A program made the translations under genes and the position numbers. A stretch of DNA of 64,000 nt from Eledone cirrhosa (lineage: Eukaryota), in the NCBI GenBank assembly GCA_964016885.1, contig OZ024743.1:72912001-72976000 (forward strand), read 5' to 3'. The notes beneath the pieces are model-generated. The model searched no databases, was not told the origin of the DNA, and saw only the letters and a list, made by a program, of their open reading frames with translations. This document shows positions 258 to 59,081 of this stretch, piece by piece. Positions within the stretch are counted from its first letter, which is position 1, and every line of letters begins with the position of its first letter.

Positions 258-955
258 GAGAGACGTAAAATAAAAAAATTATAAAATTAACTTACTTACT
301 AAAAAATCACTTCCAACTAATTAGTTTCTGGAATGGAGTAAATATATTTTCCGAAGAAACATATCGAAAATCATTCCGTCATCAGGAAAGTCTTTTTCCG
401 TGTAAGTCTCCAGGCATAGCGAGGACTCTGGAAACTTATTAAAAAAATAATTCAGTGGAATGGAAATAGCGAAGCGTGGACTGGATTCCATTGAGAAAAT
501 CACTGCTTCTACGTCTGTGGCAAATTCAAAAAGAATCAATCACGTGACATCGAGGTCAATCAGTGGAAAGCGAGTGGTTAATAAGACAGCGGCCAGCCTA
601 CTACCATAGTAGCAGTCATGGCCAAATATTGCTCGACAAATGAATTGGAGATAATTATAAGGAATTTATATCTAGTAACATTTATATACACACAGATGCA
701 TATCAATGCTAGCAAATATATAGGTTTTGTCTTATTAACATTGTGGTTCAATACATGGGGTTGCAGAACAATAATATGAGAGACGTAAAATAAGAAAATT
801 ATAAAATTTTATAATTTTCTTGTTTTACGTCTCTCATATTATTGTTCTGCAACCCCATGCATTGAACCACAATGTTAATAAGACAAAACCTATATATTTG
901 CTAGCATTGATATGCATCTGTGTGTATATAAATGTTACTAGATATAAATTCCTTA
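258..955 (-). mobile_element. Non-autonomous Penelope-like/retrozyme-like element (520-bp unit plus inverted arm) in (TA)n
   Basis: GAGAGACGTAAAA recurs at 258 and 778. ~655-805 is inverted at ~810-955. It carries a hammerhead motif, and a diverged second copy lies at 58945-59455. Confidence 0.75.
309..391 (-). ncRNA. Type I hammerhead ribozyme motif
   Basis: Minus strand reads ACUUUC-CUGAUGA-C-GGAAUG...CAUUCC-A-GAAA-CUAAUUAG-UU/GGAAGU. Stem I is ACUUUC/GGAAGU, stem II GGAAUG/CAUUCC, stem III palindromic, triplet GUU. Confidence 0.85.
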
Positions 956-1411
956 TATATATATATATATATACAAATTTTAGTACAGCATTAACGAAGC
1001 TTTAGGTTGCGGCCAAGCTAACGAATGCAAATTCAGTAATTAGCTTTAGCACTCGATAGGGAATATATATATATATATATATATATATATATATATATAT
1101 ATATATATATATATTATATATATATATATTGATTTACGAATGTTTCTATCAATACAGTAAGAAAATACATTCTTCTATATAAATTTCATAAACTCTGAAC
1201 TGTCTTTACCTATCTTACTGTGGACTATAAAATCACATTTGAGCTTTGAATTATTCTTCGCCTAAATATGGTTGTTATCAACTCATCTAAACTATCTTAT
1301 ATGTATTTATCTATCTATCTATCTATCTATCTATCTGTATATATATATATATATATATATATATATATATATATATATATATATATATATATATATATAT
1401 ATATATATATA

Positions 1412-2213
1412 TAAAGAAAAAGAGATGAAATCGAAATGCAACTGGAGTCTTTTTATTTTGTTTCGCAGTTCTTCTGCTTTTCAAAAGGTGAGTTGAGATG
1501 GAGGGTCTGTGGGTTTTTTCACATCTGGTTGGTCTCTGAATGTTACTTGTTTTATATGGAAAAAGTGGCTCGAAATGCCAGGTTTTTCGAGAAGAAATTT
1601 GATTGGTTTGTCAATAATTATAATAAATTTCGCACAAGTTCGCGTTACAATAGTTCTTCAAATAAGAGGGGGGGTTGTCACAGGTTGGTTTTTTCATATA
1701 TGAGTGTTTGAATTTCTTTTTACTTGAAAAAAGGGGGCTCACGAAGGCTTTTTTGGGGTTGGTTCAAAATAAGGGCACAAAAATTTAATGAAAACTTGTT
1801 CACGTGACAGCCATAATTTCATTTATAACCAACCAAAAAAAAGCCTTCGTGAGCCCCCTTTTTTTAAGTAAAAAGAAGTTCAAACACTCATATGTGAAAA
1901 AACAACCTGTGATAACCCCCCCCCCCTTCTTATCTGAAGAACTATTGTAACGCGAACTTGCGCGAAATTTATTATAATTATTGACAAACCAATCAAATTA
2001 CTTCTCGAAAAACCTGGCATTTCGAGCCACTTTTTCCATATAAAACAAGTAACATTCAGAGACCAACAAGATGTGAGAAGAACCACAGACCCTCCATCTC
2101 AACTCACCTTTTGAAAAGCAGAAGAACTGCGAAACCGGTAAAGGAACCAAAATATATATTTAAAAAAAAAAAAAGACTCCAGTTGTATTTTCGATTTCAT
2201 CTCTTTTTCTTTA
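1412..2213. mobile_element. Fold-back element with possible degenerate hammerhead (CUGAAGA at 1934, + strand)
   Basis: ~350-bp inverted arms flanked by (TA)n. A partial copy of the end lies at ~20643-20780. Stem II of the motif is weak. Confidence 0.7.
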
Positions 2214-3737
2214 TATATATATATATATATATATATATATTGTTATACTTGGGGAGGGTCATATTTGCGTAATATTGCCAGAATTAATAACAGAACACAC
2301 TCACTGTTTGGTTGGTTTCCGCTTCTCGCTGTCTTTTATATCTGCGATCTAACTTACTCGGTCCTCAATGTTGCCATTGACTAACCGACGGTCATATATA
2401 TATATATATATATATATATATATATATATATATATATATATATATATATATATATATATATATATATATATATATATATATATATATATATATATATATA
2501 TATATATATATATACAAATAAATAGATGGATAGATAGATAAATACATATAAGATAGTTTAGATGAGTTGATAACAACCATATATAGGCGAAGAATAATTC
2601 AAAACTCAAATGTGATTTTATAGTCCACAGTAAGATAGGTAAAGACAGTTCAGAGTTTATGAAATTAATATAGAAGAATGTATTTTCTCACTGTATTGAT
2701 AGAAACATTCGTAAATCAATATATATATATATAATATATATATATATATATATATATATATATATATACTATATATATATATATATATATATATATATAT
2801 ATATATATTCCCTATCGAGTGCTAAAGCTAATTACTGAATTTGCATTCGTTAGCTTGGCCGCAACCTAAAGCTTCGTTAATGCTGTACTAAAATTTGTAT
2901 ATATATATATATATATATATATATATATATATATATATATATATATGTCTCTAATCAAGGTTTACCAAATAAGAAATAGTTTTAAAATAAATTTTTTAAT
3001 CTTAACTGTACCTGCTGTAATTACCCTTACCGTACGGTTTCAAGTCTCGAAATAAATGGATAATCGATACGGAAATCCATTGAAAAGGAAGATGTATATA
3101 TATATATATATATATATATATATATATATATATATATATATATATGTATGTATATATATATATATATGTGTGTGTGTGTCTGTCTGTGTCTTTATGTACA
3201 TATATATGTGAGAGTGTGTGTGTGTATATATATACATATATATATATATATATATATATATATATATATATATATATATATATATATATATATATATATA
3301 TATATATATATATATATGTGTGTGTGTGTGTGTGTGTGTGTGTGTGTGTGTGTGTTGTGTGTGTGTCTTAGCGTGGGGATGGATGGATGTATAACCAATG
3401 TGACTGAGAACGTTATACAACCTGCTATATTTTATCAAATGTCTGTTGGGAGTTACATCTCTTAAAAAAACAGTCTGTAACCCAAAACATACTTCAATCT
3501 ATGAACTCACATATTTACTATAAACTAAGCATCAAAAGTTCAGTTTTCCTATATTCAATCTTTACTCAAGGGCCTAAATAAATCATAATTCATATGAATA
3601 TCTGTTAATACACCAGAGAAGAAAATCTCCCTAGGAAGATGTGTAATAAATCCTGTGTTAAATTGTTACTAAATATATATATATATATATATATATATAT
3701 ATATATATATATATATATATATATATATATATATATA

Positions 3738-57623: not shown

Positions 57624-58777
57624 TAAGGACGGGAACTTTCAACAAGCTATATGGATAAACTCCGGTTAAGGCCTCCCACAACGCCTCCCCCCCCCCCCTG
57701 TAGGTCCCCTACACCCCGTACCAATGACCAAGGACAACAACAACCACCCATAGTTTGTGGTCCCTATGGTGGATGGTTACACCGGATCCTCTACTGGTTA
57801 GGAGTCATCAAAACCACGTTTTATTTAACCTAATTTTATATATATATATATTATGTGTATATGTGTATATATTTTATATGTGTATATATGTGTATTTTAT
57901 ATATATATGTGTATATATATATATTATATATATATATATATATAAGTATATGTGTATTTTATATATATATATATATGTATGTATATTTAATATGTGTGTG
58001 TATTTTATATGTATGTATATTTTATATATATATATATATTTTATATATATATATATTTTATATATATATATGTGTATTATATATATATATATAAAATATA
58101 TATATATATAAAATATATATATATATATATAAAATATACTTGTGCGTATATATATATATACACACACTTGTATGGATTTGTGTGTATAGATGTGTGTGTG
58201 TCTGATGGGGTAGGTGTGAGTGTATGTACAAGTCAACTAACATAAGCCTTTTATTTCTAAATTTTCTAAATTATCTAATTATTTGACTCAAACCATTATT
58301 TTAAGTATTACCACCCCACATTAATTCCTCAATTTGTATGTGTGGATGTGTGTGTCTGTGGAGGTAGGTGTGAGTGTACGTGCAAGCCAACCTACATAAG
58401 TCTTTTTATTTGTAAATTTTCTACTCTAACCATAATTTTCAGTAGCACCACTCCACATAAATTCCTCAATTTAAGAATGACCTGTAGTATCTATTTCATA
58501 CTATTAACCTTAATTGAATATATATCTGACCAGAAATGCTTTTTTGAAAATCAGTCATATGGAACTATTGTCATTTTGCCTGACGGTTTGAAGTTTACAA
58601 CACCACCTGCCTCTTTGAGGTCAAATACCAACCCTACTATCATCTACAAACTGACCAATTAGAATTAAGACTATTCCTGCTGACAACATTAAATTATTCC
58701 TAACAAGTTCATATGTCCCAAGGCTCTGATACCATCAACACTATAAACACAGAGCTGGCATATCTAAGAACTGACTA

Positions 58778-58833
58778 ACTGCCTGATGAGGTCATAGCCA
58801 TTCACTGGCTATCATCAATATATATATAGCAGT
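58778..58833 (+). ncRNA. Degenerate hammerhead motif
   Basis: ACUGC-CUGAUGA-GGUCAUAGCCA-UUCAC-UGGCUAUCAUC-AA-(UA)n/GCAGU, with GAAA eroded; AATAAA follows. Confidence 0.5.
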
Positions 58834-58999
58834 AAATAAAGGATTATGAGTTCATGCAATTTACTTATGTTTCGTCACTATATATATATATATATATATA
58901 TATATATATATATATATATGTGTGTGTGTGTGTGTATATATATATGAAAGACGTAAAATAAGAAAATTATAAAAATTAACTTTATAATTATAAAATTTC

Positions 59000-59081
59000 A
59001 CTCCAACTAATTAGTTTCTGAAAGGGAATAAACATGGTTTCTGAATGGAACGCATGGAGAAACTTTTCGTCATCAGGAAGT
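59000..59081 (-). ncRNA. Type I hammerhead in element 58945-59455 (same family as 258-955)
   Basis: ACUUC-CUGAUGA-C-GAAA...UUUC-A-GAAA-CUAAUUAG-UU/GGAGU. Confidence 0.85.

Follow-up and report, generated by a model that had tools for sequence, protein, structure and literature searches.

Hammerhead ribozymes occur in several kinds of repeated DNA in animal genomes, among them the metazoan retrozymes without long terminal repeats (non-LTR retrozymes; Cervera and de la Pena 2020, PMC7229834; Li, Clavereau and Pollet 2026, preprint 10.64898/2026.07.22.740005), the Penelope-like elements and the double-hammerhead satellites. Insertions of Penelope-like elements are characterized by 5' truncation, partial tandem copies, an adjacent inverted 5'-truncated copy and a bias towards (TA)n (Craig et al. 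2021, PMC8557442), and the hammerheads of metazoan members have been reported to show low activity in vitro (Cervera and de la Pena 2014, PMC4209133). Perreault et al. (2011, PMC3088659) rejected hammerhead candidates with mispairing next to the core. A literature search on cephalopod hammerheads and retrozymes found, apart from Craig et al. 2021, no paper combining these subjects. Here we describe two sites in a 64,000-nucleotide stretch of the Eledone cirrhosa genome (assembly GCA_964016885.1, contig OZ024743.1, positions 72,912,001 to 72,976,000 of the forward strand; hereafter, the window). Both are copies of a non-coding repeat unit of ~525 base pairs (bp) that carries a hammerhead-type motif, and comparison of the family's copies supports selection on the fold of this motif in the master lineages.

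Two diverged copies of a hammerhead-type motif

Both copies of the motif lie on the minus strand and were recognized from the sequence and by covariance-model matches. Copy 1, which belongs to a subfamily that we call A, runs from 391 to 309, and copy 2, of subfamily B, runs from 59081 to 59000. The layout is a helix I strand, CUGAUGA, C, a hairpin of 48-49 nucleotides (nt), A, GAAA, the 3-bp element ACU-AAUU-AGU, U and the second helix I strand. In copy 1, stem I is formed by ACUUUC (391-386) and GGAAGU (314-309), and the core by CUGAUGA (385-379), an unpaired C (378), an unpaired A (329) and GAAA (328-325), with helix II at 377-330; the stem III palindrome ACUAAUUAGU (325-316) is followed by U17 (315), and the layout predicts cleavage between 315 and 314. 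The corresponding parts of copy 2 are stem I, with ACUUC as the 5' strand and GGAGU at 59004-59000, the core with CUGAUGA (59076-59070), C (59069), A (59019) and GAAA, helix II at 59068-59020, and the same stem III palindrome ACUAAUUAGU (59015-59006) followed by U (59005), with predicted cleavage between 59005 and 59004. A covariance model (R1), built from copies of the family and run on the 64-kb window, gave exactly two matches, 416-285 at 146.5 bits and 59106-58974 at 131.6 bits.

An earlier note on this DNA had described the two copies as identical in the core and heavily different in loop II and the flanks. Pairwise comparison bears out the identity of the core, where all 23 letters of CUGAUGA-C and A-GAAACUAAUUAGUU agree (CUGAUGAC 8/8, AGAAACUAAUUAGUU 15/15). 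The claimed divergence holds for the distal helix II arm (22/38 identical) and for the 5' and 3' flanks (15/27 and 16/26), the non-core motif and near (30-nt) flanks being only 55-65% alike, but it was overstated for the copies as a whole, as the entire units at 258-752 and 58946-59451 are 78% alike over 515 bp (self-blast). The stem changes named in that note were found as described: in stem II, GGAA/UUCC has become GAAA/UUUC, so that the second pair of helix II changes on both sides, from G-C to A-U, and stem I has lost one pair (ACUUUC/GGAAGU to ACUUC/GGAGU). The fifth helix II pair of copy 2 is broken by a private G-to-A change (CGAAAAG, found in 1 of 143 family copies, against CGAAAGG in its subfamily, found in 31 of 143). 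By this pair-breaking change, copy 2 is itself a decayed insertion.

Covariation and selection on the fold

It had also been claimed that the ribozyme fold is under selection in master elements. Two copies alone are insufficient for such a claim, and therefore a larger sample was needed. From 90 fetched loci, we obtained 143 non-overlapping motif copies, 121 of which are distinct, and aligned 118 of these, representing at least five subfamilies; L032:2057-2174 and L015:2042-2150 were left out because of internal deletions, and L040:1301-1439 because it was a false regular-expression match without a real 5' half. When RNAalifold was applied to the raw alignment, it found helices II and III, but CUG was paired with CAG and helix I was not formed. 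Therefore, we named the structure by hand for the scoring of pairs, with 17 pairs in total (four in helix I, six in proximal helix II, four in distal helix II and three in helix III). Standard pairs occupy 96.5% of the 2,004 cells given by these pairs in the 118 copies, as compared with 35-48% when the 3' partners are slid by 1-3 columns. Likewise, the covariation score of 0.332 falls to 0.03-0.12 after sliding, and none of 500 shuffles reached it.

The clearest changes are in helix II. Pair 51-102 occurs in all four Watson-Crick types (AU 49, GC 45, CG 12, UA 12) and is unpaired in no copy. Two-sided changes are also seen at pairs 54-99 (UA 54, GC 46, other 18, mostly a sub-lineage with a bulged C), 65-90 (CG 45, UA 33, GC 11, other 28), 67-88 (UA 102, CG 14) and 68-87 (AU 66, GC 45, GU 5). 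These counts are of cells rather than events; the minimum number of two-sided events, calculated as pair types minus one and summed over the five pairs, is about 8. An alternation of U-A and C-G at one helix I pair actually reflects the one-pair insertion or deletion in that helix, and reading of the alignment gave no consistent pairing of stem I beyond 5-6 bp across subfamilies.

We also clustered the 118 copies on their flank columns only, which yielded six clusters of at least three copies (101 copies together). Among the 17 pairs, majority states that differ between these clusters are paired in 9 of 10 cases, eight of them by two-sided change, a small between-family count. In contrast, pairing is kept in only 62 of the 117 private deviations from a cluster majority, and 90 of these deviations are one-sided. 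Fixed changes thus preserve pairing whereas private ones often do not, as would be expected of selected masters whose insertions decay neutrally. This supports the conclusion that the fold is under selection in the master lineages, in agreement with the claim of the earlier note.

The core was compared with the rest of the unit in two ways. Among representatives of six subfamilies, core identity is 1.00 as against 0.53-0.83 elsewhere. This profile is circular, because the core pattern had served to find four of these representatives, and so we replaced it with units sampled by an unrelated anchor, GTCACGTGATTGATTC. This block, which includes a CACGTG palindrome and lies at 533-548 on the minus strand of the window, is the best-conserved non-hammerhead block in the six-representative profile. 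It has 7,765 exact genomic matches (control, 0), is present in every subfamily unit and may act as an internal promoter or bind a protein. Of the first 30 places sampled by the anchor, 28 carry CTGATGA, 28 carry GAAACTAATTAGTT and 27 carry both in order; at one of the three failing places (L139), there is no recognizable unit downstream of the anchor.

The other features of a hammerhead were scored in the same alignment. The core C3 U4 G5 A6 N7 G8 A9 ... G12 A13 A14 is complete in both window copies, and each core column is held by 114-118 of the 118 copies, although the core itself had been used to find part of this sample. All 118 have the A15.1-U16.1 pair and, at position 17, a U, which is a permitted cleavage-site base (not G). 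Three helices surround the core: an open-ended helix I of 5-6 bp, as in type I hammerheads, a helix II of six proximal bp plus a distal helix, with two-sided changes at the five pairs given above, and a helix III of 3 bp. One unpaired base stands on each side of helix II, a C after A9 (117/118) and an A before G12 (118/118); beyond these, G10.1 is present in 114 and C11.1 in 117 of the 118 copies.

Genomic abundance and arrays of the unit

The pattern CTGATGAN{25,55}GAAACTAATTAGT is matched exactly at 9,158 places of the 3.0-Gb genome, whereas the reversed control gives no match. Many copies of the type of copy 1 (subfamily A; 2,309 first-look candidates, 40 scored) are 96-98% identical to it, and thus this subfamily is young; copies of the type of copy 2 (subfamily B; 2,565 first-look candidates, 40 scored) are 92-94% identical. 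Units also stand head to tail with a period of 525 bp. The longest ATG-started frame in a 1.7-kb array has 53 amino acids (aa), and the GC content is 34%. The predicted cleavage falls after position 443 of the reference unit, taken from L027. In three arrays (L012, L017 and L027), neighboring units of the same arm are 100%, 99.8% and 99.8% alike, as compared with a mean of 97.3% between arrays, as would fit one template that was copied repeatedly; between opposite arms the similarity is 97.4% and 98.4%, and the arrays differ from one another by ~2.7%. No RNA run was listed for the unit. The unit and its ~502/(TA)n junction were also present in three runs as short high-depth contigs from one sample; contigs of this kind cannot show RNA ends.

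Insertion architecture and the proposed mobilizing enzyme

Copy 1 lies within a two-armed subfamily A insertion at 256-957, delimited by blastn of the reference unit and by self-blast. Its minus arm (808 to 256) starts at unit position 470, passes through one full unit and ends at ~502; this arm holds the hammerhead-type motif, whereas the plus arm (805 to 957) runs from unit 470 to 97 and is without one. The stretch 656-957 is palindromic at 98.7%. At its ~502 end, the minus arm abuts a (TA)n tract at 140-255, the target microsatellite, and the unit-97 end of the plus arm abuts another at 958-972. Copy 2 lies in a one-armed subfamily B insertion of about one unit at 58941-59451 on the minus strand (unit 1 at 59451, ~509 at 58941; blastn and sequence), with (TA)n/(TG)n on one side (58880-58940) and (TA)n on the other (59453-59476).

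To these we added a survey of 48 arms in 28 non-overlapping subfamily A loci. The outer ends of 20 arms fall at unit 97-102 and those of 25 at 499-502, so that 45 of the 48 lie at two sites, ~180 nt and ~55-60 nt, respectively, downstream of the predicted cleavage site; only three are elsewhere, and nearly all arm ends directly adjoin TA repeats. The inner starts are scattered over the unit, which points to 5' truncation. Arms are found on both strands in 20 of the 28 loci, and in at least 15 they meet head to head, one ending at each fixed site. Insertions of the 525-bp unit thus show the features described for Penelope-like elements (PMC8557442), and the window copies follow the pattern of the surveyed loci.

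The genome contains a very abundant Penelope-like element, which we call PLE-1 (31,040 first-look candidates). It encodes a reverse transcriptase (RT) with a C-terminal GIY-YIG domain in many intact 796-aa frames, and its nearest Atlas clusters have HTH_animal, DUF8422 and GIY-YIG domains. One CUGANGA...GAAA string was found in PLE-1, within the coding region, and its similarity to the 525-bp unit is confined to TG/TA-rich low-complexity sequence. No pair spaced 2-6 kb on one strand was found among the 100 motif matches listed of the 9,158. The searches for a coding element with the motif covered small samples of these copies and found none in the sampled loci, so that the mobilizing partner proposed below is drawn from the insertion architecture only.

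Several observations were made beside these searches. A PLE-1 copy at L122:728-4949 (minus strand) has an intact 796-aa frame, a TG/TA-rich 3' untranslated region of ~1 kb and an inverted 5'-truncated neighbor at L122:5020-6016, but gave no hammerhead, and a PLE-1 fragment lies in the window at 4412-5367 (minus strand). A sub-threshold Hammerhead_1 match at L122:6553-6602 was rejected as an unrelated motif (20.8 bits, against an RF00163 gathering score of 34). Near GIY-YIG matches at L186 (plus strand, 1035), L199 (minus strand, 331) and L203 (minus strand, 812), there are motifs like CUGAUGA-U-GUUGCA GAUG UGCAAC-GAAAG, which resemble the published minimal Penelope-element hammerheads and have the 5' extra base only.

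Other hammerhead-like motifs and a possible core variant

In the window, CTGATGAN{10,40}GAAAC has five matches where 0.21 are expected, and none of 100 shuffles reached five. One CTGATGA...GAAAC match, at 12972, was rejected as a hammerhead, since it lies inside an unrelated inverted repeat; this repeat (12940-13003) is perfect over 24 nt with a 21-nt gap and happens to include the string. A further match lies at 45776.

Two more hammerhead-like motifs belong to other repeat families. The motif at 52567-52600 on the plus strand, CUGAUGA-A-GGGU GAU ACCC-A-GAAAC, has an 8-bp helix I, a short helix III, a GUC cleavage triplet and an A..A spacer; it has 2,772 exact genomic matches (control, 0), and some of the matches listed are ~437-444 bp apart on one strand. 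The other, CUGAUGA-C-AGC UAAUAC GCU-A-GAAAC UAGUU at 53880-53914 on the minus strand, has a 6-bp helix I, the palindrome ACUAGU and a C..A spacer, and its 1,279 exact genomic matches (control, 0) often form inverted pairs a few hundred bp apart.

Because the same kind of spacer is found in these two further families, it looks like a trait of the retrozyme hammerheads of this genome. We tentatively raise the possibility, which we regard as rather doubtful, that it defines a distinct core variant: the catalytic core and helix II would be set apart by a fixed, non-canonical one-by-one spacer (C opposite A, or A opposite A) in at least three unrelated families with more than 13,000 exact motif copies, rejected by standard criteria and matched by no Rfam model. 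If such a variant cleaves efficiently, then the natural rules for the hammerhead core, and the search models derived from them, are too narrow. A built-in stabilizer or a handle for reverse transcriptase would then be provided by the 48-nt arm of helix II in the present family, in which the distal helix covaries and the internal loop is conserved.

Proposed mechanism and alternative explanations

We consider it likely that both sites are copies of a Penelope-type retrozyme-like repeat, the type I hammerhead-type motif of which is kept by selection on the fold and is predicted to self-cleave multimeric transcripts. The unit arrays would be transcribed, and the motif, probably acting as a double hammerhead through the palindrome AACUAAUUAGUU, would cut after U17 (315|314 and 59005|59004). 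The unit-length RNA would then probably be circularized by a host ligase, and a Penelope-like reverse transcriptase/GIY-YIG endonuclease would copy it into nicked (TA)n, with priming at two internal UA-rich sites ~55-60 nt and ~180 nt past the cleavage site and with copying that often goes round more than once. Each window copy has a single hammerhead, so that neither alone could release unit-length RNA.

Several results weigh against this proposal. Helix II does not directly adjoin A9 and G12, as the published criterion demands (PMC3088659), because of the unpaired C and A. No Rfam hammerhead family (including RF00163) was found in the window at the gathering score, nor any Rfam hammerhead at E<=10 in the stretches 200-700, 58900-59400 and 295-405 (501, 501 and 111 bases). 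Covariation is slight in helix I (UG 86 versus CG 30 at one pair, plus the one-pair insertion or deletion) and is absent from the 3-bp helix III, which is invariant and therefore says nothing for or against the fold. In L027, the similarity of the third unit to its neighbors is only 97.4-97.6%, which makes it as different as a foreign copy. The hammerheads of metazoan Penelope-like elements were, as mentioned above, of low activity in vitro (PMC4209133). For PLE-1, the retrozyme hammerhead was found downstream on the coding strand in 0 of 30 loci, and 30 further GIY-YIG loci gave one model match, which was more than 1.2 kb from the endonuclease match and in the wrong place. The minimum free energy fold of the copy 1 monomer, at -15.4 kcal/mol, is a non-hammerhead fold, and a hammerhead-compatible fold reaches -12.9. 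A two-molecule fold, however, reaches -40.4 kcal/mol as compared with 2 x -15.4, via the invariant 12-nt palindrome AACUAAUUAGUU, within which ACUAAUUAGU lies, and helix I pairing in trans. This dimer fits the double-hammerhead mode of the newt, viroid and Penelope-element motifs, a mode that probably applies here too.

The ends of the insertions also speak against the proposal, as they are not at the predicted cleavage site. Only one of the 48 arms ends there, namely the minus arm of L014 (G000:C23), which stops exactly at unit 443 and runs into (TA)n, and the cleavage-site end pattern GAAACTAATTN{0,14}ATATATATATAT is not enriched genome-wide (191 matches versus 165 in the reversed control). 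Thus, the template was not simply a cut linear monomer; an RNA that was circular or multimeric, with priming at two UA-rich sites within it, would fit better.

These points raise the question of whether the motif is catalytic at all. A structure kept for a non-catalytic role, with catalysis weak or lost, could serve as a handle for the RT or endonuclease or as a fold by which the RNA is stabilized or positioned. Its functional part would then be the long arm of helix II, together with the internal loop that is conserved there. The confinement of covariation to helix II, the extra C and A that break the usual rule beside the core, the lack of an Rfam hammerhead match in the window and the three stretches, the insertion ends away from the cleavage site and the low published activity (PMC4209133) all agree with this, and Craig et al. 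2021 (PMC8557442) describe the function of hammerheads in these elements as unclear and Naiad elements as thriving without them. Nevertheless, a binding hairpin would not need the 11 core bases, the A15.1-U16.1 pair and the permitted U17, which are kept in subfamilies that are 25-45% different elsewhere, and the window has two unrelated families in which this core is likewise kept, next to a similar spacer. We therefore regard this explanation as unlikely, although it is the alternative to be taken most seriously.

It is far less probable that there is no selection on the RNA, so that the identical core simply reflects shared recent descent, or that the invariant palindrome AACTAATTAGTT, in which there is a TAATTA-type protein-binding site, has a role at the level of DNA. 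Subfamily A is indeed young, with copies 96-98% alike, and the invariant stem III and its palindrome are as compatible with a site in DNA as with a helix in RNA. Descent alone, however, cannot produce four Watson-Crick types with no unpaired copy at one position together with two-sided changes at five further pairs; the slid-partner controls, which retain the relatedness of the copies, pair in 35-48% rather than 96.5% of cells; and pairing is kept far more often by fixed than by private differences. Finally, a short CUGAUGA...GAAA core can arise randomly, as it did once at 12940-13003, but 9,158 matches against none in the control, the correct order and spacing of all parts and the covariation effectively exclude a chance resemblance to the hammerhead. 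Thus, among these explanations, we favor a Penelope-type retrozyme-like repeat with a motif selected for its fold and predicted to self-cleave.

Other features of the window

The window also contains frames of the long interspersed nuclear element (LINE) type, namely a 518-aa endonuclease/RT frame followed by a 287-aa RVT_1 frame at 60748-63046 (plus strand) and a 332-aa frame with a zf-RVT domain at 34632-35627 (minus strand). Large inverted repeats of other elements occupy parts of 1-3061 (39-202 with 3061-2898, 925-1413 with 2943-2435, and a palindrome at 1385-2240), and the assembly is interrupted by a gap of 200 N (26363-26562).

Comparison with known hammerhead systems

As hammerhead families of Penelope-like elements and retrozymes are already known to be rich in compensatory changes, the main result bears out what was expected, now in a further family, which is a well-supported but ordinary new example of the animal ribozyme-bearing retrozymes. 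It nevertheless offers an unusually clean natural covariation series, with all four Watson-Crick pairs at one position and subfamilies of different age, and the contrast between pair-preserving fixed changes and pair-breaking private ones places selection on the master lineages. A core variant that escapes Rfam suggests that genome annotations undercount such ribozymes. In addition, the young, high-copy subfamily A with its two sharp ends makes the proposed circular-RNA copying by a Penelope-type enzyme testable in this species.

The motif has the core letters and helix order of Hammerhead_1 (RF00163) and the other Rfam hammerheads, but did not match them at the thresholds tried. Double-hammerhead satellites such as newt satellite 2 and pDo500 of Dolichopoda (PMC2837043) resemble the present family in being tandem repeats of ~330-500 bp with a type I hammerhead, in their compensatory changes among relatives and in a weak helix III that favors a dimeric fold. 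However, pDo500 has a compact 49-nt hammerhead in a true satellite, whereas the present element consists of thousands of dispersed short insertions with retrotransposon-type ends.

In the details of the motif, the family is closer to the hammerheads described from Penelope-like elements ('min-HHR' and variants; PMC4209133). They share a base between positions 9 and 10.1 (here C, in 117 of 118 copies), the conserved G10.1-C11.1 pair, palindromic positions 15.2-16.2 with loop 3, a long helix II (here six proximal bp) together with a short helix I of 5-6 bp without a clear loop 1, and many consensus families with compensatory changes. They differ in that helix III of the present motif is complete, with 3 bp and the loop AAUU, and in that, besides the 5' extra base that has been described, there is an additional unpaired A between C11.1 and G12. 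Moreover, the published motifs sit in the terminal repeat of an element coding for RT/GIY-YIG, whereas the present one is found in a non-autonomous 525-bp unit.

In its organization, the unit is most like the metazoan non-LTR retrozymes, which are also short, low-GC, non-coding tandem units, each with a type I hammerhead (PMC7229834), in arrays of about one unit to multimers, and for which mobilization by Penelope-like elements, probably via circular RNA, has been proposed; amphibian units likewise have a short palindromic helix III that suggests dimeric action. The described units are ~170-400 nt long as against 525 nt here, a range that we take as descriptive rather than defining, and they have a helix II of ~4 bp plus a loop instead of a 48-49-nt arm and lack the one unpaired base that the present family has on each side of helix II. 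They are also expressed as linear and circular RNA of unit length, which for the present family is predicted, and in the sampled loci we found no sequence link between it and the terminal repeat of a coding Penelope-like element. The present element appears to work like the metazoan non-LTR retrozymes, with a ribozyme motif of the Penelope-element type.

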